Positions 10,516 to 45,215 are shown, counted from the first letter of the stretch. The stretch is DNA of 64,000 nucleotides from a virus (IMGVR_UViG_3300047445_000242:1472-65471), one strand, 5' to 3'. A program made the numbers and translations. The notes: a model not told the origin generated them from the letters alone.

Positions 10516-13500
10516 TCAGCGGCCGGCCGCCGAAGCGCGCACTCGCTCGCCGAGCGTCGGCTTCCGGCGGGCCTTCTCCTCCTGCTCGATCGACTCGTTC
10601 AAGTCCTTCTGCCAAACATAGCGCTCGGCGTCGAGCTCCTTCAGGCGCGCCGGATCGGTGGTCTCCTTGACCTCCTTGGTCAGCTTGTTCACGGCCCGCT
10701 GTGCCCGGTTGCCGAAGCGGATCGCGTCGGCCTCGGGCTTCGCCTGGAGCCGGTCCATCAAGTCGGGGAGGTCGGCGGCCTTGGCGGCCTTGATTTCGCC
10801 CTCCAGCTTCTCCAGCTTGTTCACGTTGTTGAAGTACTTGCTTCGCTGAACCTGCTGGTCATCGACCTTGCCATACCACCGGTTCATCACCGGGATCGAG
10901 TTCTCCGGGACCTCCTGGCCGGCGAGCTTGGCCGCCGAGAGGTTGATGAGCCGCTCGGTCTCGCGCAGCACGCCGCCGCCCAGGACCTGGGCGATGTACC
11001 GGTAGCGCTCGGGCGTCCAGGAAATGCCGCCCTGCGTGACATCGGTGCCGAAGTCGAGGTCGGCGTTCGGCGTCATGGCGTTGATGGCCTTGCTGATGCC
11101 GAGGTAGGCCTGGCCGGTCAGCGTGCGCCGCGTGGCCTCGCGCGTCCGTGCAGCGCCTGGTCGAGGATCGCGATCGCCGCGCTCCTGCTGCTCGATCGGC
11201 ACGCCGGCGAAGTTTCGGTTCGAGGCGAGCTCCACGAGCGGGTCGAGCACCGTGGGGAGGACCGTCTTCAGCGCGCCGTCCGTGGTGAAGACGTTGCCGC
11301 CGCCCAGCGGGTTGAAGGCGCCGGCGATTTCGCCCAGTGCAGACCAGGCCTTGAGGCCCAGCTTCTTGGGCTGGAGCTCGCTGAGCGCCATTTCCGTCAG
11401 CACGCGGCCGGTGTTGGGCAGGACGTGCAGGCCCAGCGGCAGGGGGATTGCGATGTAGCGCTTGCCCTCGCCTGGCAGAGGAATGATGAGCGCCCGAGCC
11501 TTCACAAACTCGGGGAGGTCGTCGTCATCGAAGCCGGCCGCGGCGAGCATGAGGCCTTGCAGCACGCCCAGCGCGAAGCCGCCGGCGATGATGCGCGGCC
11601 CAGCCGGTCCACGCAGCGCCCGCATCGTCCGCTCGGTGCCCTGGAGTGCGGCGTTGAAGAAGGCGTAGAGCGGGCCGACCGTGCGGCCAGTGCGGCCCTT
11701 GCGGTTGAAGTCCACCGTCAATTCGCGGCCCAGGCGCGCGGCCTGCGGCTTGCTCATTCCCTTGTCCAGCGCGGCCGCGTAGGCCGACAGGCGCACGGCG
11801 TTCTCCATGATGTCGTTGAAGCCAGACAGGAGGTTGATGAGCATGCGGCCGACGCGCCGCGGATCCATCGGGCCCCTCGACATGATCTTCAGCTGGCGCT
11901 CGACCTCCTTGGCCCGCTTCTCGCCGTTCTCGAACATCGCCGTAAAACCGGTCTTTCCGCCCTCGGCCATGAACTGGTCGAACAGGCGAGACCACTTGCC
12001 CGCATCCTCGCGGCCGGTCAGGTGGTGGAAGATGCCGCGCATCGCACCAGGGATACCGGCCATGACGCGGAGCTTCTCGTGGCGGAGCTCGGTGTTCGTC
12101 AGGTGGACCAGGCCGCCGCTCGTGTCGCGCCAGAAATTGACGATGCCGAAAGCCGGGTTGTATTGCGTATTCACCGCGGCCAGCCAGCGCGTCGCACGGC
12201 CGACGATCGAGCCCGCCACGTCATAGTCGTTGAGGAGAGAGTCGGCGCCCTTCATCGCGGCCGCCATGCGCTTCGCACGTTCGTCCTCGACGTTCAACAT
12301 CAAGACTCGAGACTCTCCTTTGATCTTGAGCGTGATCGCGCCCGGCATCATCGCGTACATGGGATTGGTCTTCGTCGTGACGCGGTTGGTCACGGGGTCC
12401 ACGTCCGTCACGCTCGGCAGGCCCTGGTGCCCGGCCTCCGCCACCAGCGGGTCGATGCCCATGCGCTCCAGGTCGGCCTTGATGTCCTCCGCCTGGCTGT
12501 CGGGTCGGATGGTCGCCCAGAAGCTCGGGTTCGGATTCGACAGGGCCAGGCCGTAGAGCGCCACCGCGATGCGGTTCTTCTCGCCGCGCACGATCGCCGC
12601 CTCGCGCTGCTGCAGCACCTGGGCCACGATGTTGATGGCCTGCTTTTCCGAGCCCGTGGCCCTCTTGTGGATGACCAGGCGATTGAAGTCCACGTCTTCG
12701 CGGAACATGGGCACGTAGTGCTTGTAAGCGCCCTCCCAGGCCGCGATCGTGTCGCCATCTTCCAGGCCGTCGAGCACCAGGCGGGCACGCGTGCCGGCCG
12801 TGATCTTGTCGATCATCGCGCCCATGCGATCGAGCACGGCGCGGCGATCGGCCGGGATGTCGGCCAGGTACTTGTTGGCCGCGGCTGTGGTCAGAAGCAG
12901 GCCCTTCGAGTTCGAGCCGGCGCCACCGTCCGGCATGAGCGGGTTGATCTTGGCGATCTGCTTGTTCCGCTCGGGCGCGGCGCGCGCATGCAGGTAGTCG
13001 CCGAGCTCCACCTGGTCCACGCCGGCGTCGCGCATGGCCTTCAGCAGTGGCTCGACTTCGTGCTTCACAAAGTCCTCGGACTTCTTGGCCACGCGGCCGG
13101 CGTAGAGGGTCTCCGCCAGGCGGGCGTTGAACTGGTCCTCGATCTGGTCCTGCGTGTCGCGCTCGATCGCTTCTTGGACGCGCTTCAGGTCCACCTTGCC
13201 GTCCTGCCACTCGTAGATCAGGTTATCGATGCGACTGCGGCCCGGCGCCGCCCATGGGCGATCGATGACTTCAGCGGCCACATCGGTCGGGACGTGACCG
13301 TGGCCCATGCGGTCATTGGCCACGTCGAGGATGTCGATGATCTTGTTCGCGCGCTCGATGGCCTTGCGCCCTTCGGCCGAGGTGCGCGGCGTGCCGCCCT
13401 CGCCTTCGGTGGTATGCCCTTCGGCCACCTGGAGGAGCTCGTCGCGCAAGCGTTCGGCTGCCAGGTCGAGCGGCAGGGTCTTCACCTCCTCATTGATGGC

Positions 13501-16500
13501 CTGGCCCGTGCGATCGGCCACGCGCAGCATGTCGTCGAGTGCCTGCGCCGTGATCGCCGAGTCGGCGGACGCGCGCAGCTGGCGATATTCGGCAATGCCG
13601 GCGTCGTCCATCTTGAACAGGCGGCGGAGCTCGTCGTCGCGCCAGACCAGGCCGGGCGACTCAAACTGCTTGCGGAATCGGTTGTTGATCGCGCCCTCGT
13701 AGATGTCGAGCTTCGACTCGCGCCAGCGCTTCAGCTGGTCGGCGGTGATGGTGCCGGTGCGCAGCAGCATTTCCGCGCGCTCGTCGGTCCCGATGGCCTC
13801 GTAGGCCTTCTTCTGCTCGGCCAGCTTCACGGGCTTGCCACTCTGGTCTCGGGTCCACGCGATCGAGCCGCCGAAGATGGCTTTCGCCAGGTTCGGCTTG
13901 GGCTGCTGCGATGGCGCCGGCGCCGCGGCACTGAGCCGGATGTCGGCGCTCGACGGGTCGAAGGCGCCGCCGTTGCCGGTGGCGCTCTTGATCTGCGAAG
14001 GCTCCAGCGCGATCCAGGCCGCCTGGTTGTCGAATTCGGTGGAGCCCTCGTTCCCGCTGGCCTCGATCTTGATGCCGTCCTTGCCCATGTCGGTGAGCCA
14101 CTTGCGGTAAGCATCGACCTCGGCCGTGCCGATCGTCCGTCCATCGTCCTTGCCGTTCTGCAGAAGGCGCGCACGGCGCTGCAGCAGCTGGAAGGTTGTC
14201 ACCTGCGGATTCTTGATGGCCAGATAGACCGGGTAGATCGCGCTGCCCTCATGGTTGCCCGAGTACATGGCTGCGCCGCCTTCGCCGGGGTTGGTGCTGA
14301 ACCAGCTGCCCACGGTGTCGAGCGATGGCGCCCGGAATTTCGTAGTGAACATCCGATCGAACGCCGTGATGTCGCCCATCCCTGGAGCCTTGGCGCCGTC
14401 GCGCACGATGGTCCCGTGGTAGACCACGGCCGGCGCGCCGGAGTCGTCCACCACCTTCGAGTCACCGAACCAGCGTTTGAATGCCGGCGTGTCGGTCTGC
14501 TTCTGGGTCGCGGCGCTCATGCTCTCGCCGGCGGCGGTGGCCAGGCCAGTGCGCGATCGCGCCTGCTCGCTGAATGCCCGCATGCCGGCGATGACCACGC
14601 GGCGGGCCTCCTGTACGTCCTTCAGGAGCGCGTCGGTGCCCAGCGGGCTCGTGTTGGCCAGCTTCGCGATGATGCGATCCAGGAAGCGCACCACGGCGTC
14701 GGCCACGCGGCGGAACAGGCCGCGGTTGTCGGCGGCCAGGCCGGCCCAAAACTCGGGGCTGACAAAGTTGTCGCCCACGATGTCGGCATAGAGCTCCTCG
14801 CGCAGCTTCGAGCCCTCGGGCGCCTCGCGGCCGATCGCGTCATATTTCGCCTTCAGGTCCCGGTAGAAGTCGGTCGTCTTGTCGTTGGTCAACTGGTTGA
14901 GCCGGTGCTCCATGGCCGCGTACAGGTGCGGCGCCTCGCGTCGCAGCGAGTGCAGCAGTTCATGCCCCAGGATGGCCAGGTGCGGCTTGCTGCTGTCCAC
15001 GCGGATGAACACCGTGCCAGGCACCGAAGCCGACATGGCGCCATTGAAGACGGCCGGGCCGTTGAAGCGCACGAACACCACGTCATGACCGAAAAGTCGC
15101 TTCGCGGCCAGGCGAACGGCCGCGAGCGATTTGCCGGCGTCGGTGCTGTCGTTGGGCTCCACGGCCTGGAAGCTGATGAAGCCCTCCTGGCTGGCCTTCA
15201 GGTTGTCCAGCAGGCGCGCGGCCTTGCGGTCGTGCTCGGCGCTGGCCGGCTTCGTCTGCACGGCCGCGCCGGCGCCCTCTGCGGTGCGCATCGGATCGGC
15301 GGCGCTAAAAAGCTCGGTAGTGCCTCGGTCGGTCTCGCGCGATTCGATCGTGTCGAAGAACTTGTCGAAGGCCTCGCGCACGGCCGGCAGTTCGTCGGCG
15401 AGCGGGTAGGGGTAGCTCGGCTCCTCGTTGAGTACCCACTCCATCGACGGGACCACGTTGGCCAGGTAGTCGTTGCTGAAATTCTGGTCGTTGAGCTTGG
15501 CGATCACATAGCTCTCGAACGCTCGCGCAGAGAGCTCGTGCTCGGTGGACCAGTAGGGCTTCGAGCGGCGCTTGTCGAGCGCCTTCGATCGCGCAGTCAT
15601 CGGGATGTTTGCCAGCGTGCGCTTGATCTGCGCGAACGCCGCGCGCATCTGGGGCCGCACGTCGCCCACGCCGTCAGGCGTCGCCGAGAGGTAGCGGCCG
15701 CTGCCGTCCTTCTTCCCGAAGTAGTTGTCGAGCGCGTGCCACCACTCATGTGCGAGCGAGCCAGCGCCGGCGTTCTTCGTCAGGTTGATGACCACTTGGC
15801 CAGGCTCGTAATGCGCCGCGGCCGCGTCCTTGCCGCCGGAGCCTCGCGCACCGAAGGCCAGGCCCAGCTTGCCGTCGAGCGAGAGCGATCGCGGAGGCAC
15901 GCCGAGCACGGCCGCCATGTCCATGAGCGAGTCATAGGCGCGGTTGAGGTCAGCCTGGCGGCGCGGGCCCTCGACGTAGTTCCCGAACTGCACGCCGCGG
16001 AAGCCGAAGGCCTCGCCGAACTGCTCGGGCGTCACGTCGCCGCTGTTGCGGTGGTCCTGGCCGACACGCGGCGCGTTCTCGGCCTTGCGTTCGCTCGGGA
16101 TGTGCTTGTAGTCCGACCACGAGGTCTCAAGCGCCGCCTGGTTGCCCGCGCGCCACTCGCGCGCCTCGGCCACGGTCTTGAACCCGGTCTTCAGGCGCAC
16201 CACGTCGCCGCCGATCTTCTTGCCGATGAAGATAGGCGCGGCTGCGTTGCCGCGGCGATCGGAGTAGATGTCGAACGAGGCGCCCTTCTTCTGCGCGGCC
16301 TCGGCGGCCTGGCCGAAGGCCTTGTCGTAGTTCGCTTTGAACTTGGCGATCGCCTCCTCGCGCGTGTCGCCCACGCCGAGCTCCTTGCCCCAGTTGCCGA
16401 ACGAGCCCTTCGAGCTCCGGCTGACGGACCAGATCGTCTTCGATGGCGAGTACTTGACGCCGCCATACATCGAATAATGGCCAGCCGAGAGCTCCACGTC

Positions 16501-19500
16501 CTTGAGCGAGTGCGCGTGCCCGACCGCCTCGTAAAGCATGGTCTGGTTCACCACCCAGTCATTGAGGGCCACATGGAGGTCGGGGCCCTTGAGCCGATCG
16601 CGCACGTCGAACGTGCCGGCCAGCGCCGCCTCGGCCGACTCGCGCAGGGTCTTGACCTTCTCGGCCCAGGCGTTCAGCTTCCAGCCCTTCGTCGGCTTGT
16701 TCGGAACCTGGTCGCGCGCTGCACGAGCGAACGCCACCGCGGCCGAGTCGGCGCCGCCTTCGATCAGCTTCTGGTAGTCCGGCGCTGGCCAGGACTTCGA
16801 GAGCGGCTCGGTTTTGATGTCGGCCTTTGACGCCTCGGCCATCTTGGCCTTGTAGTCGTCGGTGTAGAGCATCTTCTTCGCGCCCTTGAGCTCCTCGCCA
16901 AAGTCGGCGATCGCCGGCGCCGCGGCGGCCTTGCCCTTGGGCGGCTTCGCCGGCGCTTCAGCGGGCGCGGCGGCCTTCGGTGGGGCGGCTGGCTCGTTGC
17001 CCTTGATGAGCGCTTTCTCCGGCCGGTAGATGGCCAGCGTCACGGCGTCGGGCTTCACCTCCCAGCCCTCGGGCCGGTTCGGCTCCTTGAAGGCGATGCC
17101 GTCATAGCCCAGAGCCAGCACGCGGTCGCGCAGCTGTTCGCCCAGCGCGCGGTCGTCGGTCGAGCGATCGAACAGGTCCTTCACGTCCGCCGGCACGTTG
17201 TCGCCGCGCATGTCGAGGATGCGCGCGTCGGGCGCGACATCGACGTTCAACACGGTGCCGCCCGACTCGATGACCGCATCCTGTTGCGCTTCGGTCATCG
17301 TCTTGTCGCGGCGGCCGATCTTGATGGCCGCGGCGCCGGCGAAGAAGCGCGCGAGCCCCTGGCGGTCGTCCGTCAGATAGACCGCTGGCCCCTGGTGGTG
17401 GTAGCCGGCGCCGCCGCCGCGGCCGACCTCGAAGGCCTCCATGGGGACGGCCGTGCCGTGGAAGAAGCCGGGGAAGGTGTCGCCGTTGGGCTTCGGCTTC
17501 TCGGCCTCCATTGCCGCCTTGCGGTCGGCGCTGCGCTGCATTTCGCTGTTCAGCGTCGGCGTGGCCACCTTGGCGCGCGGCCCGGTGCGGAGGTTCGCCG
17601 CGGTCGGCTGCGTGGTATGCGTGCGTTCGAGCGATCGCTCCGAATCGACCCACTTGCCATCCTTCTCCTCGACCTCCTGCACGGTCACGCTCCAGCGGCC
17701 ATCGGCGTCGGCCGGCGGGTGGTAGCTGATGACGCGATCGAAGCCGGCATAGCCGCGCACCACGTTGCCAGGCGTGAAGTACTTGGCGCGGGCCTCCTCG
17801 GCTTCGCGAGCGGCCTTGACGGCCTTGGTTTCTCGCTTTGGCTTCGGCGTAGATGGTGCGGCTGCTGGTGCAGTCGCTGGCTCGGCCGCCGCGACTGGCG
17901 CCGGCGCCGGCGCGGGTGCTGCTGGCGTGGCCAGGCTCGGGTCCAGCGGCTTCTTGAAAAGACCGTTCTCGAGCCCGTTTTTGAATTCGGCCACCGTCAT
18001 TTCGGTGATGGGCCCGACCTTCCAGCCCTTCATGTAGCTGGCTTTGTATGCCCGCACGCCGGCGGCCTTGTTCATGAACCCGAACAGGGCCTTCGCTTCG
18101 TCGTAGGTGCCGTCCTTGTTCACCTGGTCGATGACCCACACGTTCGGCGCGCGATCGGCGGCCGGGCCCACGAACATATCGACGTGATCGCCATCGGCGG
18201 CCAGGCTGCGCTTGGCGTACCCGTAGTGCGCACCCATGGTGTTCGACCACTCGGTGCCGTCCGGCGAGACGCCCTTGCGCTCGCTGCCCTTCGGGTTCTC
18301 CACCGTGATGTCAACGCCCTGCGTCTGCTCGCCGGAGAGGTGGCCCATCTTGTAATTGCCGGCCTCCTTCTGCGCCTGCGTGGGCTCGGGGAGGTCGTTG
18401 GTCGGGCTGGTGGCGGCCTCATGCGCGGCGGCGTCGATCGAGGCCGCTGGAGTTGTCGACTTTGGCTCGACAGTGCTTGCATTGGGCTCGCCGATCGCCT
18501 TGGCCAGCGCCTCGCGGGTGCGCGGCTGCAGGTCATCCCAGGCCTTCGCCGAGAGCATCTTGGCCCGCAGGCCGGTGCGGCCAGTCTTCTCCAGGGCGGA
18601 GAGCCGGTCGGACGTGACCATGCGCGTCCAGCCGGCCTTCAGTGCTGCGTCGGGTCCGTCTCCAGCTGGTACAGGTGCAGCTTTGCTGCCGCGGTCTGTG
18701 CCCACTGCGGCACGCCCCGTTCCCAGTTCTCCACCAGGTCCTCCCAATCCAGGTCCCACGCTTCCGTCGCCGTCAGCACTCCCGCCTCGAACGCCGCTTG
18801 CGTCTGTTCCTCGAACGTTGTTGCCGTCGCTGCCACTGGCCACTGTTGCATCGCTCACTCCTTGCTCTGCCGCCTTGCGGACCACGTAACCACCACTGTC
18901 GAGCCGGACGATTTCATGCCCGGCGCCACGCGCCTCGACGGCCTTCTTCGCGCCCGAGCGGGTCGTGAAGGGCTTGCCAACGGCGTTCAGCACATCGTCG
19001 GGCTCGATGCCCAGTTTCGCATTGGCCTCGCGCGTGACGCGCGCCTGCCGCTGGTCCAGCGCCTGGTCGTACTCCTTCGAGCCCTTGATGGCCACTGAGA
19101 CCGTGCCGTCATCGTGCGTGAAGGGCGCCGCGATGACGGATGTTCCTCGGCCCTTCTGCTCGCGGATGTAGTCGTTCGCCGCCTTCAGGTCAGGGTATCG
19201 GGTCGCGGCGGGCCGATCGGCTCCAGCGCCGTCTTCAGCCGGCGCGCCTTCGCGTCCTGCACCTCGTACAGCTGCCGCATCACTCGCACCACTTCCGCCG
19301 GCGTTGTCGCCAGCTTCGGCCGCGTTGCTTCCCGGCGCTGCCGCTGGTCCAGCGCGATCAGGAGCGCGAGGGGCGGCTTCCGGCGCGGCTCCGGCCGTGG
19401 CGGCGGTAGGTGGTCGCTGTGAATCTCCTTCAACTGTTGCACTTTGGGCCTCCGGTGTTGCGGTTGTTGCGCTTTGCGTTTCGCTTTTCGGCTTGGCCAG

Positions 19501-21453
19501 CACCTCACGGGCGCCGGCGGCCGTCATCGGGCTCACCACGCCCTCGGCCTCCAGTTGCTCCATGAGCCGCTGCGCGTTGGTGTAGCCGATCTTCAAGTGG
19601 CGCTGCACGGCCGACACGCTGGCGCGCCCCGACTTCGTGACGATTTCGCGGGCCTGGTCGATGAGCTCCTTCGACGCCGGCGCCGGCGCCGGAGCGGGCG
19701 CCGGCGCTTCGGACATGGGAATTCCCATATCGGCCTCGGGCTCGATCGGCGTGGGCTGGCGCGCGTCGCGCTCCTTGCTCTTGGTCAGGTCCTCGGGCGT
19801 GGCCTTCAGGTCGCCCTCGGGGATGAAGTCGAGCGGCTGCTCGGCCGCCGGCGCATCGTTCACCAGGGCCGCGTCCATCGCGGCTGTGTCGGCTTCGCTC
19901 TGCTCGATCGAGCGGATGCGATCCTCCACGTCCTGGCGCTCCTCGGGCGTCTTGTTCAGCGGCACGGGCGCCGTGTCAGCGCCGACGCGCGCTGCAGCGC
20001 GGGCGAAGGCCTTGGGCGGCTTCACGGGAACTGGGGGAACTGGTGGCACTGCGGGAATTGACGAAACCGGCGCCGGCGCGGCAGGCGTCGTCAATTGGCT
20101 GGTGTCCACCTGGGGCGCGGATGCCCCTGGAACTGACGAATCCGGGCCTACAGCTGACGAAACGGGCGGAGCCGGTGGGGTAGTGGCTTGCTCGGGCGCG
20201 AGCGCGCCAGGCGCGTGCGCATGCGAGCGCGCGGCGAGCGCACCAGGCCCGAGGGTCCCGGTGAACGTGTCGGCGGTCTGCTGGCCCATGCCTTCGGTAA
20301 GGCCGGTCTTGTTGTCCACGGCGCCGACCACGGCGTTCTGTGCCAGGCCGGGGAGCCAGGTTTCGCCCTGTTCGCCCAGGTGCTCGGCGCCCACGCGCGC
20401 CACGCGATCGCCGAAGGCATCGCGGCGGACGGCGCCGGAAGCGCGGTTCGCGAAGGTCTGCTCGACGCCGAGCTTCCCGCTGATGGCGCCGGCGAGCGCG
20501 CCGGCGGCCTGCGCCGGGATCGAGTAGATCGGCACGATGATGCCCAGCGCCTGCTCGTGGTCCAGGCCCGAGCTCCGCAGCGCCTGGTAGGTCGAGTCGT
20601 TGCGCCACGCGGCCGGATCGACCTCGCGGAGCTTCTGCTCGGTGGACTTCTTCGCGTCGCCGGCGGTCGAGAGGGCATTGAGCACCTCGATCGCCTTCGG
20701 GCTGACGCCGGCCGAGCCGAGGGCCAGGGTCGGCACGAGAGAGCCCGCGCCCTGCGCGACGACATCGAGGCCGGCGGCCGGGAGGTCGAACACGCTCTGG
20801 AAGGCGGCGCGCGCCGCGGCCATTTCGCCCTGACTGTTCTTCACCGAATCGATCCGACCCTGGCGCACAGAGGTTTGCTCGCGCAGTTCGGGCGACTTCA
20901 GGCGATCGGCGCCCTTGCTGGCGGTGTCGAAGAAGTCGGCCACCGGCGCGCCCACGATCGGGACCACGCGGGCGGCGCCCTCGACCATGCCGGCGGCGCC
21001 CTGGTAAACGCCCAGCGCGGCGTCGCTGGCGGCGCGCACCAGGCCGCGCTTGGGCGTCTCTCGATAGGGCTCGGCGGACATGGGCGGGGCGGATGCCTGC
21101 GCGCGGTTGCCGGCGCCGCGGCGCTCCTGGCGCTCCAGCTGCGCGCGGTCATAGGGCGCATCCTCGACAGAGCGCTCCAGCAGCGATCGCGTGTCCGTGG
21201 TCCGCGTGCCGGCGTTGGCGATCGTGCTGGCCAGGTCGCCGCCCATGGGGTCGGTCGAGGGCTCAGGCTCGGTTGGGAGCGTGCGGTTGATGCTGCCGCG
21301 GCCGCCGCCGGCGCTCGATGGCGTCACGCCCTTCGGGAGCGCGGCCTTCGCAGCTGGCGTGTCGTCGGTTCCGAAGTCGAGGTCGGAGGCCTTGCGGTCA
21401 TCCGTGCCGAAGTCGAGGTCGTCGGTGGTGGTCTTCTTCGCCATGGTGCTCAC
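10516..21453 (-). CDS. Giant polyvalent virion/ejection protein (FtsK-gamma, inorganic-pyrophosphatase-like, 2 ART-like, LPD5/LPD1 and second HExxH peptidase, LPD38-like C-terminus)
   Basis: 3645 aa. Motifs include SAVQRHLKIGYTNAQRLMEQLEAEGVVS, QKEAGNYKMGH..ENPKGS..DGDHVD, FHGT/YHGT..GYDGI, FGFRGVQFGN..AGSLAHEWWH, HELLH, TVDFNRKG..LYAFFNA. Confidence 0.9.
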   Translation of the reverse strand: MSTMAKKTTTDDLDFGTDDRKASDLDFGTDDTPAAKAALPKGVTPSSAGGGRGSINRTLPTEPEPSTDPMGGDLASTIANAGTRTTDTRSLLERSVEDAPYDRAQLERQERRGAGNRAQASAPPMSAEPYRETPKRGLVRAASDAALGVYQGAAGMVEGAARVVPIVGAPVADFFDTASKGADRLKSPELREQTSVRQGRIDSVKNSQGEMAAARAAFQSVFDLPAAGLDVVAQGAGSLVPTLALGSAGVSPKAIEVLNALSTAGDAKKSTEQKLREVDPAAWRNDSTYQALRSSGLDHEQALGIIVPIYSIPAQAAGALAGAISGKLGVEQTFANRASGAVRRDAFGDRVARVGAEHLGEQGETWLPGLAQNAVVGAVDNKTGLTEGMGQQTADTFTGTLGPGALAARSHAHAPGALAPEQATTPPAPPVSSAVGPDSSVPGASAPQVDTSQLTTPAAPAPVSSIPAVPPVPPVPVKPPKAFARAAARVGADTAPVPLNKTPEERQDVEDRIRSIEQSEADTAAMDAALVNDAPAAEQPLDFIPEGDLKATPEDLTKSKERDARQPTPIEPEADMGIPMSEAPAPAPAPAPASKELIDQAREIVTKSGRASVSAVQRHLKIGYTNAQRLMEQLEAEGVVSPMTAAGAREVLAKPKSETQSATTATPEAQSATVEGDSQRPPTAATAGAAPEAAPRAPDRAGPAAAPGSNAAEAGDNAGGSGASDAAAVRGAGREGAPAEDGAGADRPAATRYPDLKAANDYIREQKGRGTSVIAAPFTHDDGTVSVAIKGSKEYDQALDQRQARVTREANAKLGIEPDDVLNAVGKPFTTRSGAKKAVEARGAGHEIVRLDSGGYVVRKAAEQGVSDATVASGSDGNNVRGTDASGVRGGSADGDGSVGPGLGGPGGELGTGRAAVGTDRGSKAAPVPAGDGPDAALKAGWTRMVTSDRLSALEKTGRTGLRAKMLSAKAWDDLQPRTREALAKAIGEPNASTVEPKSTTPAASIDAAAHEAATSPTNDLPEPTQAQKEAGNYKMGHLSGEQTQGVDITVENPKGSERKGVSPDGTEWSNTMGAHYGYAKRSLAADGDHVDMFVGPAADRAPNVWVIDQVNKDGTYDEAKALFGFMNKAAGVRAYKASYMKGWKVGPITEMTVAEFKNGLENGLFKKPLDPSLATPAAPAPAPAPVAAAEPATAPAAAPSTPKPKRETKAVKAAREAEEARAKYFTPGNVVRGYAGFDRVISYHPPADADGRWSVTVQEVEEKDGKWVDSERSLERTHTTQPTAANLRTGPRAKVATPTLNSEMQRSADRKAAMEAEKPKPNGDTFPGFFHGTAVPMEAFEVGRGGGAGYHHQGPAVYLTDDRQGLARFFAGAAAIKIGRRDKTMTEAQQDAVIESGGTVLNVDVAPDARILDMRGDNVPADVKDLFDRSTDDRALGEQLRDRVLALGYDGIAFKEPNRPEGWEVKPDAVTLAIYRPEKALIKGNEPAAPPKAAAPAEAPAKPPKGKAAAAPAIADFGEELKGAKKMLYTDDYKAKMAEASKADIKTEPLSKSWPAPDYQKLIEGGADSAAVAFARAARDQVPNKPTKGWKLNAWAEKVKTLRESAEAALAGTFDVRDRLKGPDLHVALNDWVVNQTMLYEAVGHAHSLKDVELSAGHYSMYGGVKYSPSKTIWSVSRSSKGSFGNWGKELGVGDTREEAIAKFKANYDKAFGQAAEAAQKKGASFDIYSDRRGNAAAPIFIGKKIGGDVVRLKTGFKTVAEAREWRAGNQAALETSWSDYKHIPSERKAENAPRVGQDHRNSGDVTPEQFGEAFGFRGVQFGNYVEGPRRQADLNRAYDSLMDMAAVLGVPPRSLSLDGKLGLAFGARGSGGKDAAAAHYEPGQVVINLTKNAGAGSLAHEWWHALDNYFGKKDGSGRYLSATPDGVGDVRPQMRAAFAQIKRTLANIPMTARSKALDKRRSKPYWSTEHELSARAFESYVIAKLNDQNFSNDYLANVVPSMEWVLNEEPSYPYPLADELPAVREAFDKFFDTIESRETDRGTTELFSAADPMRTAEGAGAAVQTKPASAEHDRKAARLLDNLKASQEGFISFQAVEPNDSTDAGKSLAAVRLAAKRLFGHDVVFVRFNGPAVFNGAMSASVPGTVFIRVDSSKPHLAILGHELLHSLRREAPHLYAAMEHRLNQLTNDKTTDFYRDLKAKYDAIGREAPEGSKLREELYADIVGDNFVSPEFWAGLAADNRGLFRRVADAVVRFLDRIIAKLANTSPLGTDALLKDVQEARRVVIAGMRAFSEQARSRTGLATAAGESMSAATQKQTDTPAFKRWFGDSKVVDDSGAPAVVYHGTIVRDGAKAPGMGDITAFDRMFTTKFRAPSLDTVGSWFSTNPGEGGAAMYSGNHEGSAIYPVYLAIKNPQVTTFQLLQRRARLLQNGKDDGRTIGTAEVDAYRKWLTDMGKDGIKIEASGNEGSTEFDNQAAWIALEPSQIKSATGNGGAFDPSSADIRLSAAAPAPSQQPKPNLAKAIFGGSIAWTRDQSGKPVKLAEQKKAYEAIGTDERAEMLLRTGTITADQLKRWRESKLDIYEGAINNRFRKQFESPGLVWRDDELRRLFKMDDAGIAEYRQLRASADSAITAQALDDMLRVADRTGQAINEEVKTLPLDLAAERLRDELLQVAEGHTTEGEGGTPRTSAEGRKAIERANKIIDILDVANDRMGHGHVPTDVAAEVIDRPWAAPGRSRIDNLIYEWQDGKVDLKRVQEAIERDTQDQIEDQFNARLAETLYAGRVAKKSEDFVKHEVEPLLKAMRDAGVDQVELGDYLHARAAPERNKQIAKINPLMPDGGAGSNSKGLLLTTAAANKYLADIPADRRAVLDRMGAMIDKITAGTRARLVLDGLEDGDTIAAWEGAYKHYVPMFREDVDFNRLVIHKRATGSEKQAINIVAQVLQQREAAIVRGEKNRIAVALYGLALSNPNPSFWATIRPDSQAEDIKADLERMGIDPLVAEAGHQGLPSVTDVDPVTNRVTTKTNPMYAMMPGAITLKIKGESRVLMLNVEDERAKRMAAAMKGADSLLNDYDVAGSIVGRATRWLAAVNTQYNPAFGIVNFWRDTSGGLVHLTNTELRHEKLRVMAGIPGAMRGIFHHLTGREDAGKWSRLFDQFMAEGGKTGFTAMFENGEKRAKEVERQLKIMSRGPMDPRRVGRMLINLLSGFNDIMENAVRLSAYAAALDKGMSKPQAARLGRELTVDFNRKGRTGRTVGPLYAFFNAALQGTERTMRALRGPAGPRIIAGGFALGVLQGLMLAAAGFDDDDLPEFVKARALIIPLPGEGKRYIAIPLPLGLHVLPNTGRVLTEMALSELQPKKLGLKAWSALGEIAGAFNPLGGGNVFTTDGALKTVLPTVLDPLVELASNRNFAGVPIEQQERGDRDPRPGAARTREATRRTLTGQAYLGISKAINAMTPNADLDFGTDVTQGGISWTPERYRYIAQVLGGGVLRETERLINLSAAKLAGQEVPENSIPVMNRWYGKVDDQQVQRSKYFNNVNKLEKLEGEIKAAKAADLPDLMDRLQAKPEADAIRFGNRAQRAVNKLTKEVKETTDPARLKELDAERYVWQKDLNESIEQEEKARRKPTLGERVRASAAGR

Positions 21454-22991
21454 TTCTTGACCAGCTTTTCGCCGGTCTTCGGGTGGATGTAGACCGCGCC
21501 GCTCGGGAGGGCGTCGTACTCGCCGCGGGTCGAAACCTTCACGGCGCCGCTCTTGTCCTTCGGCGGGCTCGCGTCGCCCTTCTGCTTGCGGATGCCGGCC
21601 GTGCCCTCGGGGCCGACTTTCTTCTCCACCAGGTTGACCAGCTGCTCTTGCACGGCGTCGCGCTGAGCGCCGAGCGAGGATTGCTGCTTGTACAGGCTCT
21701 GGAGGAGCGGGTCGGCCGCCTGAGAGGCGCGCGGCAGGTCCTTCACGCGATCAGAAATCGCCTTGTTCGTCTCGCTGATTTCGCGGTTGATCGCGGTCGC
21801 CGCCGACTGCACGGTGAGGCGCGTTTCGCGATCACTGGAGCCGCCGCCCTTGCCGCCACCGCCGCCGGCCTGCAGCTTGGCGATGCGGGCCTCGTTCATG
21901 GCGCCGGTCAGTTCGAGGCGCTGGCGTGCGATGTCCAGGCTGTCCTTCTTCGCGTCGATCGAGGCATCCGTGGCCACGCCCTTGCGCCCGAGCTCCAGCG
22001 CCTTGTCGTAGGGCATGAGCGCCATCGAGGCCTGGTGGCTGTTGATCGTGAACGGCGTGGTCTTGCCGTCTTCGCCCACCATCGGGAAAGTGAGGTCGAA
22101 CGTGCGAATCTTGCCGGCGCCAGGCACGTCCGTTTCGGTCGGCGTCATCGTGACTGGGCCGTCGCCGACCTTGAACAGACCCGACTTCTTCAGCGTGGCC
22201 ACGGCCGCGGTCTTGTCGCCGAGCCGGAACTGGCGCATGCCCTCGAACACGCCCTTTTCCTTCATTTCCTCGGCGGCCTTCTGCATCTGCGACTGCTTCT
22301 GCTGCAGCGCGAGGGCCTCGGTCGGCATGCCGTTGCGCATGTAGGCGTCGGCCATCCGGCCCACGGTCGCGTCGGGCGCGTTGGCGGAATCGGCTGCGGC
22401 TTGCGCGGCGGCGCGGTTTGCGTAGGTCTTGCCGCCGACCTCGAAGCTCTGCACGCCCACCGGGGCCAGCGGCGCAGCTGCTGCCGGCGGTGGAGTGACC
22501 GCGGCGTCCACCGGCGCGGCGACGCCCTCGGCTGCAACGTCCTGGTTCGTGACGCCGGCCTGCTGCGAGGCGAGCGCGGCGCGGTTGGCCATTTCGGCGC
22601 TCGCGTCCTGCGAGGTGGCCAGGTTCTGCGCGGCCGCGGCCCGGCTGGCCGCCTCTCCGCCTCCTGCTGCCGAAGCGATGCCGCCGGCGAGGGCGCTGCC
22701 CGCGGCCGCCGGCGTCGATGCCGTCATGGGCGCTTCGCCAGGCTGGCCCACGTCGCGATTGTCCATGTAGTCGGGCTTCGCCACGCGCTCGGTGACGGCC
22801 TGGCGCTGGCTCGCGCCGGCCAGGTCACGCTCGACCGCATCCTCTCGATCGAGCTTGCGTGTCTGCGAAGCACGAACTCGAGACTTGAATTTCTTGTCGC
22901 TCTCGTACTCCTCGTCCGAGCGAACGATCTGCCGTCCGCGCAGGTAGCCGTTGACGGCCGCTTCAGCGATGTTTCCCCAGTTGCCAGCCAT
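21450..22991 (-). CDS. Internal virion (ejection) protein
   Basis: 513 aa, Ala/Gln-rich helical, C-terminal EYDALPSGAVYIHP motif. Coupled to the giant gene. Confidence 0.7.
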   Translation of the reverse strand: MAGNWGNIAEAAVNGYLRGRQIVRSDEEYESDKKFKSRVRASQTRKLDREDAVERDLAGASQRQAVTERVAKPDYMDNRDVGQPGEAPMTASTPAAAGSALAGGIASAAGGGEAASRAAAAQNLATSQDASAEMANRAALASQQAGVTNQDVAAEGVAAPVDAAVTPPPAAAAPLAPVGVQSFEVGGKTYANRAAAQAAADSANAPDATVGRMADAYMRNGMPTEALALQQKQSQMQKAAEEMKEKGVFEGMRQFRLGDKTAAVATLKKSGLFKVGDGPVTMTPTETDVPGAGKIRTFDLTFPMVGEDGKTTPFTINSHQASMALMPYDKALELGRKGVATDASIDAKKDSLDIARQRLELTGAMNEARIAKLQAGGGGGKGGGSSDRETRLTVQSAATAINREISETNKAISDRVKDLPRASQAADPLLQSLYKQQSSLGAQRDAVQEQLVNLVEKKVGPEGTAGIRKQKGDASPPKDKSGAVKVSTRGEYDALPSGAVYIHPKTGEKLVKK

Positions 22992-22992
22992 G

Positions 22993-24411
22993 TCAGGCCT
23001 CCATTTCGTTGTCGAGATTGATGAGGGTTGCGGTCACTTCGGCGCGGATGTCCGCCAGGCGGCGGATGACCACGGCGTGAGCCTCGGGATGGTGCTTCTT
23101 CGTGTAGCCGAGCCGGCCTTCGTCGAGCCAGGCCGTGCAGTGCAGGCACTCGGGGGCGCGCTTCATGCCCTCGGCGTAGAACGGCGCCACCGGCACGCCT
23201 AGCGCGGCCAGGTAGGTGTCCACCTGGGCGGCGGTCCAGTCCTGGATTGGGTAGTGCACCTCGAAGCCGTCGAGCACGTCGCGGTCGCGCATCGGTGGTG
23301 TCGCGTACTCGTCGTCACGCTGGCCGCGCACGATCATCGTGATGCGCTCCTCCACCATGATCGCGTGCATGGGGTTCATCAGGTTCGCGGCGCAGCAGGC
23401 GTAGCGATCGACCAGGCGAAGCTCGCGGCCCGACACGGCGCGCCCGATCGGCGTGTTCTCGGTCGGTACCAGGTCGCTCGCGTAGCCGTGTGACAGGCGG
23501 AAGGCTCCCACGTCCTGGGCGATGACCTCCAGCACCACGCCGGCGTCGGCCAGGTCCTGGCGCACACGATCGACCACCGCCCGCGTCTCGGGGAACTGGT
23601 CGCCGGTGTCCAGGTGGTAGACGCGCATCTGCGGCCAGCGATCGCGCAGCAGGTATAGCGCCGCCAGGCTGTCGCGGCCGCCGCTGAACTGGAAGGCGAT
23701 CGCGCCCTCGTGGCGGGTCCACCGGGCGACATCCGGGTGCAACGCGGTGAACTTCCACACGGTCGGGACCAGGCCGTCCATCACGGTGGTTTCGATGCCG
23801 TCCGCGGCCAGGAGCTCGGCCATGCGATCGACGCACACGCCCGGCGCGAGCGCGGCCTCCAGCGTGAAGCCGGCCTCGCGCGCCCAGCGCTCGATCCACT
23901 CGGGCTCGAAGAAGCGCGCGCCCAGGAGCGCCTCGGCCTCCACGTTGTCGCCGGCGAGCCTGGCCATGTCGTTGATGAGGAGCGTGCCGCCGGGCTTGAG
24001 CACGCGATAGGCCTCCGCCAGCGCCTCGCTCCAGAGTGGCGAATGGCAGAGCGCGAAGCTGAAGACGATCGCGTCGGCCGACTTGTCGGGCACATCCGTC
24101 ATCGCATGGAAGTCCGCCTGGAGCCGGTCGAAGTCATCGGGGCAGAGCGACAGCTGGAGCTTGCTGGCGTTCACCAGGAGGAAGTCAAGGTCGGGGCGCT
24201 CCTCGCGCATGAGCCTGGCCATTTCGCCGACGCCACACCCGGCATCGATGATCGCGGCGCCCTCCAGCGGGTCCAGCATGGCCAGCAGGACGGCGACGTG
24301 CTCGGCTTCGGTGGCGCCGAACAGGGCGCTGTTGAAAACGCGAATGCCGCGGTCGAGCGCTGGCTCGGTCGCGGCATCCACGGCCTCGGGATTCATGAGG
24401 GTGAGGGTCAT
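22993..24411 (-). CDS. Class I SAM methyltransferase fused to a PAPS/APS-reductase-like PP-loop domain
   Basis: IIDAGCGVG, EAYRVLKPGG, then FSGGRDS, DTGDQFPET, CC-X81-CLHC, RGQR, YPIQDWT. Confidence 0.88.
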   Translation of the reverse strand: MTLTLMNPEAVDAATEPALDRGIRVFNSALFGATEAEHVAVLLAMLDPLEGAAIIDAGCGVGEMARLMREERPDLDFLLVNASKLQLSLCPDDFDRLQADFHAMTDVPDKSADAIVFSFALCHSPLWSEALAEAYRVLKPGGTLLINDMARLAGDNVEAEALLGARFFEPEWIERWAREAGFTLEAALAPGVCVDRMAELLAADGIETTVMDGLVPTVWKFTALHPDVARWTRHEGAIAFQFSGGRDSLAALYLLRDRWPQMRVYHLDTGDQFPETRAVVDRVRQDLADAGVVLEVIAQDVGAFRLSHGYASDLVPTENTPIGRAVSGRELRLVDRYACCAANLMNPMHAIMVEERITMIVRGQRDDEYATPPMRDRDVLDGFEVHYPIQDWTAAQVDTYLAALGVPVAPFYAEGMKRAPECLHCTAWLDEGRLGYTKKHHPEAHAVVIRRLADIRAEVTATLINLDNEMEA

Positions 24412-24458
24412 ACGTTCATGGCGTGGGCCGTTGGTGGTGGAGGGCGGAAATTTCTAAA

Positions 24459-24474
24459 TTGCGAAATTTCGCAA
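24459..24474. promoter_or_regulatory. Perfect 16-bp palindrome upstream of the MTase/PAPS-like gene
   Basis: TTGCGAAATTTCGCAA in an AT-rich intergenic patch. Confidence 0.5.
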
Positions 24475-24477
24475 GTT

Positions 24478-25365
24478 TCAGATGACGACCGCGGCGACGG
24501 TGGCCACGGCGCCGATGCCGGCGGCCGTGTTGGCATTCTTGGCCTGGCCCGCGGCGGCGTCTCGACCAGCTGCAGCACCGTAGGCCGAGCCGAGCGAGCC
24601 ATACGCGCCCTGCTGCCCCGCGTAGGCCGTGTTCACGTTCGCAAGGCCCGACTGGCCAGCGGCCAGGCCGGCCGCGCTGGCGGCGTTGGCAGCGCCCCCG
24701 GCCTGCAGCCCGAGCGCAGCGCTCGTGCCCTGGCTCGACGCGATGTTTCGGCCCAGGTTGGCAGCGTCCATGCGGCGCGCGTAGCCGATGGTCTCCACCG
24801 ATTGGTCGGCTGCACCGGAGGCGCCAGCCTTCAACTTGGCGGCGCCCAGGTCGAGCGACTGACCCATGGCGGCCGCCTTGGCCGAGCCCGGATTCACGCC
24901 CGAGCGCTCCATTTCGCGCGTGCTGGCGGCGCGGGTCGAGGCCAGGTTCGTCTCGACATCCGCGATCGCCTTCGAGCGAGCCTCAGCGCGCTTCTCGGGC
25001 GTGTCGTAGCCCTTGGCGTCGTCAACGATCTGGGCCTCCAGCGGCCGATATTTCGTGTTGTAGTCATCCCAGGCCTGGGCCTGGATTTGCGTCTGGAGTC
25101 GCTGCTGTTCTAGCGAGGCGTTCGCCGATTCGCTGGCGATGCGGCTTGCCACCTCGCGATCGGGCGCCTCCTGGGCATAAATCTGCTTGGCCCACGCAAG
25201 CTGTTCCTGGGAGGCCTGCATCTGCGCCATCGCGGTGTACATCTGCGCGCTGTTGTTGCCACCGCCGCCGCTGCCGCCCTCCAGCGTCAGGAGGTGGCCA
25301 CGGCCATCGGTGCGGAAGGCCTGCTCGGGCAGGAAGTCAAATTCGGTGCGGTGCCAGCGGCTCAT
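24478..25365 (-). CDS. Ejection/pilot-like virion protein with N-terminal leader and Gly-Gly stretch
   Basis: AAGGAG RBS. MSRWHRTEFDFLPEQAF...TLEGGSGGGG, Ala/Gln-rich body, hydrophobic C-terminus GIGAVATVAAVVI. Confidence 0.75.
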   Translation of the reverse strand: MSRWHRTEFDFLPEQAFRTDGRGHLLTLEGGSGGGGNNSAQMYTAMAQMQASQEQLAWAKQIYAQEAPDREVASRIASESANASLEQQRLQTQIQAQAWDDYNTKYRPLEAQIVDDAKGYDTPEKRAEARSKAIADVETNLASTRAASTREMERSGVNPGSAKAAAMGQSLDLGAAKLKAGASGAADQSVETIGYARRMDAANLGRNIASSQGTSAALGLQAGGAANAASAAGLAAGQSGLANVNTAYAGQQGAYGSLGSAYGAAAGRDAAAGQAKNANTAAGIGAVATVAAVVI

Positions 25366-26002
25366 GAGGTGCTCCTTTGGGGCGGCGGCGCCGCTCCTGG
25401 TAGTCGCTCGCCTCTTGCGCGCTTTTGGTGAAGACCTCGGCCGTCTTGGTGTAGCCGAGGGCAAATGCAAGGCGCTCGGCGCCTCGAATGGTGAGAGTGG
25501 TGAACGTGGCTTCGCGGACGCCGAAGTGGAACATCTTTTCCTCGGCGAAGCGCCACAGCGCGACCGCCAGCGCCCCCGTGCGGAACTCGGGGACCACGTA
25601 CAGGAGGTCATCGACCGCGCACAGCTTCTGCGTCGCGAGGTCCAGGCGCACGGCCAGGCGGGCGACGCCGATCAGCTGACCGGCGTAGGTGCGCGCGGTG
25701 AACATCACCAGTTCGCCCGTGCGCTCGCGCTCGCGCAGCACGGCCAGGCCGAAGTCGCTCGCGTCGTCGGTCAGGCGGACTTCCTTGTGATACCCGATGT
25801 GGATGGGTTCGAGCTCGGCTTCGAGCCCCCGGATGCGCTCGGCCTGGAGTGTGTACTCGCCGAGCTTCTTCTGGCCGAACTGGCGGGGGCTGATGCTGCG
25901 ATCGCCCTCCAGCAATGCGTCGGCCATGATGGTCCTGGCCACCTCGGGGGTGAGGACCTGGCCGGCGTGTTTGGCCAGGGCTACGGCAAGGAGGGATCGC
26001 AT
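25337..26002 (-). CDS. GNAT family acetyltransferase/acyltransferase
   Basis: DDLLYVVPEFRTGALAVALWRFAEE (motif A) and AERLAFALGY (motif B). Confidence 0.8.
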   Translation of the reverse strand: MRSLLAVALAKHAGQVLTPEVARTIMADALLEGDRSISPRQFGQKKLGEYTLQAERIRGLEAELEPIHIGYHKEVRLTDDASDFGLAVLRERERTGELVMFTARTYAGQLIGVARLAVRLDLATQKLCAVDDLLYVVPEFRTGALAVALWRFAEEKMFHFGVREATFTTLTIRGAERLAFALGYTKTAEVFTKSAQEASDYQERRRRPKGAPHEPLAPHRI

Positions 26003-44487: not shown

Positions 44488-44982
44488 TTAGTGCAGTTCG
44501 GAATGGATGATGCGGTCGCCGGCGCGCACCGTGACCTCGATGCCCTTGATGCGGCGCTTCATGGCCAGGGCGTCGGGCTGCTCGCTCGGCATCTTGATGA
44601 GGTCGGGCATGGCCTCCAGCACCAGGTCGAAAACGCGGTGCTTGGCGGCCTTGTCGTTCATGTCGAAGCCCAGCTGTTGCACGGCGGCCATCACGGCCAT
44701 GAGGAACGAGTCTGGGATGCCGTTGCCGTCCGCGGCCGCGTACAGGAAGGCGTTGCGCTGGGGGATGACGTAAGAGCCGGTGTCCATGCGTCGGTACGCG
44801 CTGAAAAGGCACATGCACGGGACCGGGCCGTCCTCCTCGAAGGTCGGGTCGCTGGCCTTCACATCGATCCACTGGAGCGAGGCGATCACGTCGCCCTTGT
44901 GGAACGTGCGCCAGGAGCGCTCGCCCCCGAGCTCGACCATTGGTGACCCCTTGGGTCCGAGGATTGTGGGTGCGTGATTCAT
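44488..44982 (-). CDS. Hypothetical protein
   Basis: 164 aa, ends PDLIKMPSE-type motif. Lies between terminase and portal. Confidence 0.65.
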   Translation of the reverse strand: MNHAPTILGPKGSPMVELGGERSWRTFHKGDVIASLQWIDVKASDPTFEEDGPVPCMCLFSAYRRMDTGSYVIPQRNAFLYAAADGNGIPDSFLMAVMAAVQQLGFDMNDKAAKHRVFDLVLEAMPDLIKMPSEQPDALAMKRRIKGIEVTVRAGDRIIHSELH

Positions 44983-45215
44983 TGCTGGAGCTCCTGGGTG
45001 GTGGTTGGTTGACGGTGTTGCTGCTGCTCGACGGTGAAGACGCCGCACAGCGAGTGAGGATGTGCGCCTTCGGTGGCGTTGATGTTCATGGTGCCCTGGT
45101 GCCGGCCGCTGGCCAGCGCGAGGGCGATCTGGGCCAGGCCTGCCCGGTAGAGGTCGGCCAGGCCTGCGCCTGAGTCGGCCTCGATCGTCATGGCGATCGT
45201 GATGGCGCGCCTCAT
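44979..45215 (-). CDS. Hypothetical protein
   Basis: ATGA overlaps at both ends. Confidence 0.5.
   Translation of the reverse strand: MRRAITIAMTIEADSGAGLADLYRAGLAQIALALASGRHQGTMNINATEGAHPHSLCGVFTVEQQQHRQPTTTQELQQ

Follow-up and report, generated by a model that had tools for sequence, protein, structure and literature searches.

The 64,000-nt stretch of DNA analysed here (IMGVR_UViG_3300047445_000242:1472-65471; hereafter, the window) spans nearly the whole of a virus record of 65,471 bp, which is rated complete by CheckV and represents a podophage of the Bcep22-like type with a G+C content of 68%. PHROG matches identify the podophage gene set, namely terminase, portal, major head protein, tail fibres, an 'internal virion protein', endolysin and recombination genes. 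The present report concerns three co-oriented, tightly packed genes on the minus strand, which encode a protein of the GNAT superfamily, a 295-aa virion protein and a methyltransferase fused to a PP-loop domain of the PAPS_reduct family, and in particular the association of the PP-loop gene with the C-terminus of the virion protein encoded next to it. A preliminary description of this region had placed two enzyme genes around an ejection-type gene, with the GNAT gene upstream and overlapping; all three genes are indeed present at those positions on the minus strand, the GNAT gene lies directly upstream of the virion-protein gene and the two share 29 nt. The spacer between the virion-protein gene and the fusion gene is 66 nt long, and relatives have almost no spacer at that junction. 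The features of these genes are listed below, with slots named after the internal virion protein (IVP) operon of podoviruses and with domain identities supported by Pfam and AlphaFold2 (AF2) models.

25337..26002, minus strand: GNAT acetyltransferase-fold gene, 221 aa, IVP-A slot (Pfam, PHROG)
24478..25365, minus strand: virion (ejection-type, IVP-B-like) protein, 295 aa, with leader, Gly run, long helical Q/A-rich body and apolar tail (phrog_8003)
25279..25365, minus strand: N-terminal leader MSRWHRTEFDFLPEQAFRTDGRGHLLTLE, 29 residues (conservation)
25258..25278, minus strand: Gly run GGSGGGG at the leader boundary (sequence)
24481..24528, minus strand: apolar C-terminal tail TAAGIGAVATVAAVVI, 16 residues, without charged or amide residue, ends the protein (sequence)
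22993..24411, minus strand: methyltransferase/PP-loop fusion, 472 aa (Pfam)
23731..24411, minus strand: class I S-adenosylmethionine (SAM) methyltransferase domain, residues 1-227, motif I DAGCGVGE (Pfam, AF2)
22996..23730, minus strand: PAPS_reduct-fold PP-loop domain, residues 228-472 (Pfam PF01507, AF2)
23668..23685, minus strand: canonical PP-loop SGGRDS, residues 243-248 (alignment)
23392..23397, minus strand: Cys339-Cys340 pair (invariant in all alignments)
23137..23148, minus strand: Cys422-x-x-Cys425 (invariant)

The presence of the PP-loop gene was found to go with one type of C-terminus of the preceding virion protein. The forward comparison drew on the window, Bcep22 and Ralstonia phage Gerry together with 159 viral loci, which came from two scans limited to the best 80 of 180 and the best 80 of 166 relatives; identical proteins, loci with <1200 nt of downstream sequence and cores of <120 residues were dropped, which left 106 rows. 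Where the PP-loop gene is present, the virion protein has an apolar natural tail in 30 rows and another ending in 3 (two ...GAGVSLFL, which is nearly such a tail, and one at L240). Where the gene is absent, 46 rows have a Peptidase_S74 domain, 27 have neither ending, their tail being polar, and none has the apolar natural tail. A tree of these rows, made with the tail columns excluded, requires at least 12 changes in the presence of the PP-loop gene, and well-supported branches provide 7 independent pairs, in which the tail follows the gene in the same direction in 5.9 pairs, in the opposite direction in 0 and shows no difference in 1.1 (sign-test median p 0.031, 0.016-0.0625). For the S74 domain the direction is opposite to that of the PP-loop gene in 5.2 of these 7 (p 0.0625).

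The reverse comparison started from the PP-loop domain and covered 62 viral loci, 57 of which have an upstream open reading frame (ORF) that ends between -80 and +450 nt from the PP-loop gene. An apolar run of 8 residues or more closes this ORF in 49 of 57 cases, against 4 of 318 other same-strand ORFs, and the last residue of the 49 is F in 26, Y in 11, I in 8, L in 2 and V and W in 1 each; at least 2 of the 8 misses (L095, L102) are ORF-picking errors. The PP-loop gene keeps its slot, for the most part 0-30 nt after the ejection-protein gene, also at loci where divergence has put the ejection protein beyond the reach of profile detection. Natural swaps were also seen, L007 with the PP-loop gene against L008 with Peptidase_S74, and L002 and L081 with the PP-loop gene against L070 with S74. 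A C-terminal Peptidase_S74 domain (PF13884) occurs in 25 of the 87 homologue clusters of the virion protein and is confirmed by Pfam in L008 and L070; the window's own virion protein has no Pfam match to it. Thus, of the linked system proposed in the preliminary description, the statistical tie between the PP-loop gene and the neighbouring virion protein stands, but the tie is to the C-terminus and not to the Gly N-terminus. A third C-terminal ending, ...SNGEYVLPADTVKAIG...THTPA.VQRR..., is found over the last 45 residues in L045-L047, L055, L058, L059, L065, L067, L069 and L074; it has no Pfam match, and neither the PP-loop gene nor S74 accompanies it.

The PP-loop half of the fusion matches PAPS_reduct (PF01507) over residues 238-426 (1.2e-15). 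All the motifs previously noted in it were recovered from the sequence, namely FSGGRDS (242-248), DTGDQFPET (268-276), CC (339-340) and CxxC (422-425), with 81 residues between C340 and C422, and relatives, whether fused or not, all keep SGG[RK]DS, CC and CxxC. The only Cys residues of the fusion are at positions 59, 90, 122, 193, 339, 340, 422 and 425, and the protein terminates in ...LINLDNEMEA; no conserved Cys follows CxxC in alignments of 13, 45 or 33 relatives, and the window contains no ECG[LI]H tail, the absence of which had likewise been claimed. In direct alignment FSGGRDS lies over the degenerate SSSFGIQ of CysH and over FSGGLDTS of argininosuccinate synthase. The scores obtained with curated NCBIfam models are 28.8 bits against a cut-off of 165.1 for TIGR00434 (cysH), 33.4 against 235.3 for TIGR02055 (APS_reductase), 22.0 against 254.2 for TIGR02057 and 43.9 against 154 for PRK02090. 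Given the canonical loop, the missing C-terminal catalytic Cys and scores that come nowhere near the curated cut-offs, the PP-loop enzyme is not CysH or another sulfonucleotide reductase, and the earlier statement that ordinary sulfate reduction is unlikely agrees with all three observations. The canonical SGGxDS loop suggests an N-type (adenylating) ATP pyrophosphatase that would use ATP, and the four-Cys pattern is that of an APS-reductase-type site at which a [4Fe-4S] cluster is probably bound.

A fold search with the full-length fusion model returned methyltransferases only, and the PP-loop domain was therefore folded alone (AF2 model, predicted local distance difference test (pLDDT) score 94.6). 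The solved folds nearest to it are reductases of adenosine 5'-phosphosulfate (APS) and 3'-phosphoadenosine 5'-phosphosulfate (PAPS), with Z 14.8-15.2 and a root-mean-square deviation (rmsd) of 2.5-3.1 A over 170-185 residues; the structural matches at Z ~15 are 2GOY, 7RGE, 6VPU and 7LHR. The next folds are CysD, the ATP-PPase of GMP synthetase, FAD synthase, TilS, NcsA, LarE and TtuA, with the TtuA-TtuB complex 5GHA at Foldseek rank 18, and the match lists contain no solved DndC. In the Atlas, the domain falls among viral PAPS_reduct clusters and is structurally near archaeal versions with ferredoxin (Fer4), cysteine-desulfurase-like or PUA domains.

The N-terminal half of the fusion matches Methyltransf_11 over residues 56-146 (2.9e-15), with Methyltransf_23 and Methyltransf_25 also above cut-off, and motif I, DAGCGVGE, is unchanged in relatives. 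The AF2 model of this domain (pLDDT 93.7) is most similar to SpnF (Z 24.6), sarcosine/dimethylglycine methyltransferase (Z 23.7) and RebM (Z 22.6), that is, small-molecule methyltransferases match at Z 20-24.6 against Z 18.4-18.9 for protein N-terminal methyltransferases. On the modelled Rossmann fold and motif I, the domain is predicted to be a class I SAM methyltransferase closest to small-molecule enzymes. The fusion is common: a search found 156 proteins, and nearly all of the 120 listed have both domains. The named sources are Variovorax, Xenophilus, Polaromonas, Rhizobacter, Comamonas and Pseudacidovorax, besides many contigs of ~65 kb, and a scan of species genomes found the fusion in Comamonadaceae, Cupriavidus and Massilia. 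When longer proteins containing the PP-loop domain were sought, 120 of the 128 found were listed, and the fusions among these 120 were all to a methyltransferase. In another lineage (L109:3602-4726; also L111, L113, L138 and L142), an N-terminal CxxCxxCC putative metal-binding domain (PF03692, 5.5e-7) replaces the methyltransferase.

The virion protein starts at MSRWHR, with the Shine-Dalgarno sequence AAAGGAG 7 nt upstream, and matches phrog_8003, 'virion structural protein' (2.4e-32). Its homologue in phage JC1, gp64, is among the proteins detected in JC1 virions by mass spectrometry, as is gp68, a homologue of the 513-aa protein encoded downstream in the window (PMC9144972). The leader followed by GGSGGGG is present as previously described, with a length of 29 and not 28 residues. 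Close relatives and two distant ones (L065, P0202) keep it as M[SA]RWHRTEFDxLPExAF...(M/L)(T/S)LE; it is missing from relatives that start straight at MG.. or MC.. (MGKSTK.., MGGKGGG.., MCSDAPD..), the first residues of which align with the window's Gly run. Some relatives have a short leader with Met as the last residue before the Gly run, and more distant ones begin MSKGSAPPAPDY.. or MGKSSSPPPPDY... Across relatives the boundary residue is nearly always Gly, Cys or Ser and is followed by an APDTSGxN or APxPDP motif. The leader type is independent of the PP-loop gene: the MSRWHRTEFD leader occurs without that gene in L065 and P0202, and the gene occurs with the leaderless MC.. form in L044. 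A Met-Cys start (MCSDAPD...) is seen in many homologues (L019, L020, L023-L025, L030, L044, L063, L072, L076, L079-L082); T7 gp14 (L149:1229-1819) likewise starts MCW..., and in other homologues the same motif is immediately preceded by ...GWHA[RS]C.

The 221-aa protein encoded upstream exceeds the gathering cut-off of Pfam Acetyltransf_1 only just (E 6.8e-5; 23.6 bits against 20.7) and matches phrog_1249, acetyltransferase, at 3.7e-9; solved GNATs, among them AAC(6') at E 1.1e-4, align with its family profile across motifs A and B. Nine residues are unchanged in 18 relatives (E55, G96, R104, D132, P138, R141, E154, G161, K193), and the predicted acyl-CoA loop reads VPEFRTGALA against the PEHRGG consensus. 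By these sequence features the gene is assigned to the GNAT superfamily. Directly upstream of the ejection-protein gene, a GNAT of the window type is found in 50 of 83 sources and one of the Bcep22 type (phrog_4470) in 14, with other small ORFs in this slot in the remaining relatives. A crude tally of GNAT type against N-terminal motif shows a loose tendency, the window type occurring with PDxSG in 29 cases and also with three other classes. A tblastn search of the phage collection with the GNAT gave 0 matches. HNH homing-endonuclease ORFs sit exactly between the GNAT and ejection-protein genes at L024:5435-5938 and L079:5354-5929, and an ORF with a SET domain (L074:54-365; Pfam 2.8e-7), interrupted by the contig end, occupies the GNAT slot at one locus.

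The pair of the GNAT and the virion protein resembles the beginning of the podovirus IVP operon. In the available part of Hardies et al., IVP-A, which matches acetyltransferases by HHpred, is placed directly upstream of IVP-B (T7 gp14, P22 gp7), two larger proteins come next, and the IVP-A of T7 is described as required for morphogenesis and not kept in the virion (PMC4819975). The P22 gp7 record states that the host protease OpdA removes the first 20 residues, and its sequence reads MLYAFTLGRKLRGEEPSYPE followed by KGGKGG... and ends in ...GIGLLGSLF. Compared with the window protein, ...SYPE before KGGKGG... corresponds to ...LLTLE before GGSGGGG..., both leaders ending in E, and the apolar ...GIGLLGSLF, with F as the last residue, to ...GIGAVATVAAVVI. 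By analogy, the view of the leader as part of a cleavable precursor gains support, since it resembles a removable propeptide and OpdA-cut P22 gp7 has the same plan. The Casjens laboratory reports that the N-terminus of mature P22 gp7 is Lys-Gly-Gly-Lys-Gly according to Edman sequencing and that ~60% of the burst remains after deletion of the leader, as far as the available text goes (PMC8402733). An Edman-readable N-terminus is a free amine, hence the P22 helper does not block the N-terminus of gp7. A myristoylation-like acylation of the Gly or Cys N-terminus by the GNAT, which we had considered, is weakened by this result and is not proposed here.

The explanation that we consider best, and to which we would give an even chance, is that the region is the front of a podovirus IVP operon with an optional PP-loop enzyme that serves the apolar C-terminus of the ejection protein. 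The GNAT would be the IVP-A-class helper ahead of the first ejection protein, and the 295-aa protein an IVP-B-class ejection protein built like P22 gp7, whose propeptide is probably cut by a host oligopeptidase after ...TLE, leaving a Gly-rich free N-terminus. The methyltransferase/PP-loop fusion would be an optional add-on to the operon, an enzyme of the ATP-pyrophosphatase type that probably binds a [4Fe-4S] cluster and is not a sulfonucleotide reductase, and it might either modify the apolar C-terminus covalently or hold that end until assembly. In relatives that lack the enzyme, a self-cleaving S74 chaperone fused behind the tail appears to meet the same need. For the PP-loop enzyme itself, the likeliest role is that of an ATP-dependent factor acting on or holding the apolar C-terminus.

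Enzymes of the PP-loop family use adenylation to activate carbonyl or carboxyl oxygens, and the TtuA-TtuB complex (5GHA) is a case in which a protein C-terminus can enter the active site. Given this chemistry and this precedent, adenylation of the C-terminus followed by amidation, thiolation, esterification or cross-linking is conceivable, and so is a non-covalent holdase role. The fully specified version, in which the enzyme adenylates the C-terminal carboxylate to give an amide, thioacid, ester or cross-link, so that the tail could assemble or enter the host membrane, as an enzymatic alternative to S74, is a tentative proposal that we think unlikely.

Several observations weigh against a PP-loop enzyme that serves the tail and against the IVP assignment. 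The seven contrasts are a small number, and on a first tree of 75 rows, which the 106-row set replaced, there were 3 supported contrasts and the association test could not reach significance. Exceptions exist: L117 is the one locus that pairs an S74-like ending (...VGVMADEVAHVPGAVV...) with a PP-loop gene 9 nt downstream, contrary to mutual exclusion, and L240 has the PP-loop gene without the apolar tail. P22 gp7 has an apolar tail and no PP-loop gene, so such a tail does not generally need the enzyme. Cleavage by S74 leaves an ordinary carboxylate, and a covalent cap is thus not obviously required; conversely, a pure holdase role would not account for the invariant, catalytic-looking PP-loop and Cys residues. 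The adjacency of the genes can stem from a shared insertion hot spot. The GNAT and the PP-loop enzyme are not among the JC1 virion proteins listed in the available part of that paper, which fits a helper role and says nothing on the substrate (PMC9144972). Finally, homology to P22 gp7 and gp14 or T7 gp14 was not found: the hhalign probabilities are 1.2% and 2.3%, and jackhmmer gave 0 matches and hmmsearch E = 2 against P22/T7 proteins, in searches with single-sequence templates and low sensitivity. Because sequence homology was not found, the assignment of the GNAT and the virion protein to IVP-A and IVP-B rests on position and synteny, architecture and the literature; the gene order is that of the IVP-A/IVP-B pair, and the label 'ejection-type' of the preliminary description holds by position and architecture but without detectable homology to P22 gp7 or T7 gp14.

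Three other explanations were weighed. The preliminary description had joined all components in a single pathway like those of ribosomally synthesized and post-translationally modified peptides, in which removal of the leader would expose Gly, the GNAT would N-acylate it, the PP-loop domain would adenylate or thiolate and the methyltransferase would methylate. In its favour, the three genes are co-oriented and tightly packed, Gly or Cys nearly always stands at the boundary after the leader (or Met) and before APDTSGxN or APxPDP, and small residues such as Gly and Cys are of the kind accepted by N-terminal acyltransferases; the GNAT family also keeps invariant polar residues and a PEHRGG-type loop. 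However, the components are not co-inherited. In the neighbourhood analysis of the 83 sources, leader, GNAT, PP-loop gene and methyltransferase assort independently (window-type GNAT in 50, PP-loop gene in 17, methyltransferase in 8), and the leader and the PP-loop gene occur without each other in the three loci named above. Moreover, the substrate would be a 295-aa structural protein, the association that was found concerns the C-terminus, and mature P22 gp7 has an unblocked N-terminus and a dispensable leader, as cited above. We consider a pathway of this kind improbable.

Modification of nucleic acids is a rather unlikely alternative, though a more serious one, in which the PP-loop enzyme, with or without the methyltransferase, would act on phage DNA (as DndC, SspD and BrxP do) or on host tRNA (as TtuA, NcsA and TilS do) and be merely located in the virion operon, and might serve in counter-defence alongside the polyvalent protein. 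Some relatives within PF01507 are DNA-backbone enzymes, TilS (Z 11.3), NcsA (Z 11.0) and TtuA (Z 9.9) are among the structural neighbours, archaeal PAPS_reduct domains fused to a PUA, Fer4 or cysteine-desulfurase-like domain were matched by the Atlas structure search at template-modelling (TM) scores of 0.71-0.77, and the operon is closed by a polyvalent anti-host protein. PADLOC matches of the fusion, all weak, are to mad2 (methyltransferase part), BrxP (7.3e-5), SspD (3.8e-4) and QueC, but those of the PP-loop part span only ~50 residues round the PP-loop motif, and no DndC family was matched at E <= 0.01. The PHROG annotation of 42 further ORFs of the window shows no Dnd or Ssp partner, and a DndC-like enzyme, the alternative given in the preliminary description, thereby lacks specific support. 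An enzyme of nucleic acids would leave unexplained both the tracking of the C-terminal type and the constant slot directly behind the ejection-protein gene, and the absence of the enzyme from the listed JC1 virion proteins (available text of PMC9144972) also counts against it. The published interpretation is different again: in their available parts, the papers on JC1 and CSP3 treat the acetyltransferase and the PAPS reductase as moron genes and suggest gene regulation and sulfate reduction (PMC9144972, PMC10269572), so that the two would be auxiliary metabolic genes aiding sulfur assimilation or fitness of the host. The nearest fold, that of APS/PAPS reductases at Z ~15, accords with this, but the enzyme has a canonical PP-loop of the ATP type and no catalytic C-terminal Cys, and the curated cysH and APS-reductase models give it scores well under their cut-offs. 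Furthermore, its gene keeps a fixed slot in the late virion operon across lineages at only 36-40% identity and is associated with the tail type, and the GNAT occupies the known IVP-A slot (PMC4819975, as far as available). A role in sulfur metabolism hence appears very improbable.

The genes downstream of the fusion gene, which complete the operon, and a palindrome in the 66-nt spacer are as follows.

21450..22991, minus strand: 513-aa virion protein, IVP-C slot (position, JC1 homologue)
10516..21453, minus strand: 3645-aa polyvalent ('DarB-like') virion protein, last gene of the operon (Pfam domains, position)
24459..24474, no strand assigned: perfect AT-rich palindrome TTGCGAAATTTCGCAA in the 66-nt spacer (sequence scan)

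The 513-aa gene begins 1 nt past the stop of the fusion gene, and its family is the commonest next gene after the ejection-protein gene or the PP-loop gene in relatives. The 3645-aa protein contains InPase, LPD5, LPD38, FtsK_gamma, LPD1 and ART-PolyVal domains, and its gene holds the same position as Bcep22 gp75 and Gerry gp28, which relatives' annotation calls 'DarB-like antirestriction'. The palindrome TTGCGAAATTTCGCAA could be a hairpin or a protein-binding site; it is present in a single copy within the window, and 19 of 100 shuffles yield at least 1 match at <=3 mismatches. A 270-aa ORF at 44488-45300 on the minus strand, between the portal and terminase genes, matches phrog_10057, DNA methyltransferase (4.1e-10), and no Pfam family.

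The part of the region formed by the GNAT, the ejection protein and its leader is an already known kind of system, whereas the methyltransferase fusion and the association of the PP-loop gene with the C-terminus are new. Among the papers listed in the literature searches none describes a PP-loop/tail link or the methyltransferase fusion, and neither 'acetyl' nor 'post-translational' appears in the text of a review of ejection proteins (PMC8954989). If the proposed covalent modification exists, it would be the first case of a phage DNA-ejection protein that an enzyme modifies after translation. It is routine to count phage 'PAPS reductase' genes as morons or as auxiliary genes of sulfur metabolism, and for this large viral clade the label is very probably wrong. 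An enzyme that serves the ejection protein would offer a way to study how podophages make ready the membrane-active end of the conduit that delivers their DNA, an almost unstudied step, and would explain why an S74 domain stands at the same place in some relatives. The likeness of the operons also links the 'acetyltransferase' of the Bcep22 type with the IVP-A helper that is general to phages like T7 and P22, leaving one supposed moron fewer.

Among known systems, the nearest in gene content are the Bcep22-like phages. Bcep22 (gp69-gp70-gp73-gp74-gp75) and Gerry (gp24-28) have the same annotated gene order as the window, namely acyl-CoA N-acyltransferase, virion structural protein, PAPS reductase, virion structural protein and 'DarB-like' giant protein; the same arrangement recurs in many viral contigs, and that of the three genes is not due to chance. 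At the DNA level there is no close phage record (megablast of 6 kb against the phage collection, 0 matches), and tblastn of the fusion against this collection matched the PP-loop half only, in 44 records at 36-40% identity, from Bcep22-like Burkholderia and Ralstonia phages and three others. The cassette of these phages (also JC1 gp63-65) shares SGGxDS, CC and CxxC and a middle protein of the same family as in the window. In contrast, their PP-loop protein is unfused, with ~240 aa, whereas that of the window has an N-terminal methyltransferase; the GNAT subfamily is phrog_4470 there and phrog_1249 in the window; and Bcep22 gp70 has a transmembrane-like leader, unlike the window protein.

The T7 (gp13-gp14-gp15-gp16) and P22 (gp14-gp7-gp20-gp16) operons share the plan of a small helper of an acetyltransferase family, a helical ejection protein of 200-300 aa and larger ejection proteins. 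The window's helper passes the Pfam GNAT threshold, whereas P22 gp14 is DUF2824 and T7 gp13 is Phage_T7_Gp13, and unlike the window neither operon contains a PP-loop or methyltransferase gene. The enzyme itself is structurally closest to the APS reductases of P. aeruginosa (2GOY; Z 15.2, rmsd 2.8 A, 176 residues) and M. tuberculosis (7LHR; Z 14.9, rmsd 2.5 A, 173 residues), with which it shares the CC...CxxC four-Cys pattern; identity to APS/PAPS reductases is 13-20%, but the window protein has the canonical SGGRDS, lacks the C-terminal ECG[LI]H Cys and carries in its last 40 residues a long helix outside the core aligned to them. DndC, SspD and BrxP have a PF01507-type PP-loop with canonical SGGxDS like that of the window, the context of which is, however, a virion operon. 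TtuA (carrier TtuB), NcsA and LarE share the PP-loop ATP-pyrophosphatase fold and a [4Fe-4S] site (Z 9.9-11.0) but belong to another Pfam family with another Cys pattern and act on tRNA or a cofactor; unlike in these systems, no sulfur carrier or desulfurase gene is encoded here. Peptidase_S74, the chaperone domain of tail fibres and spikes, works in cis and cuts itself off; it stands right behind the apolar tail in the ejection proteins of relatives and is lacking in that of the window, where the PP-loop enzyme is a separate protein of the ATP type.

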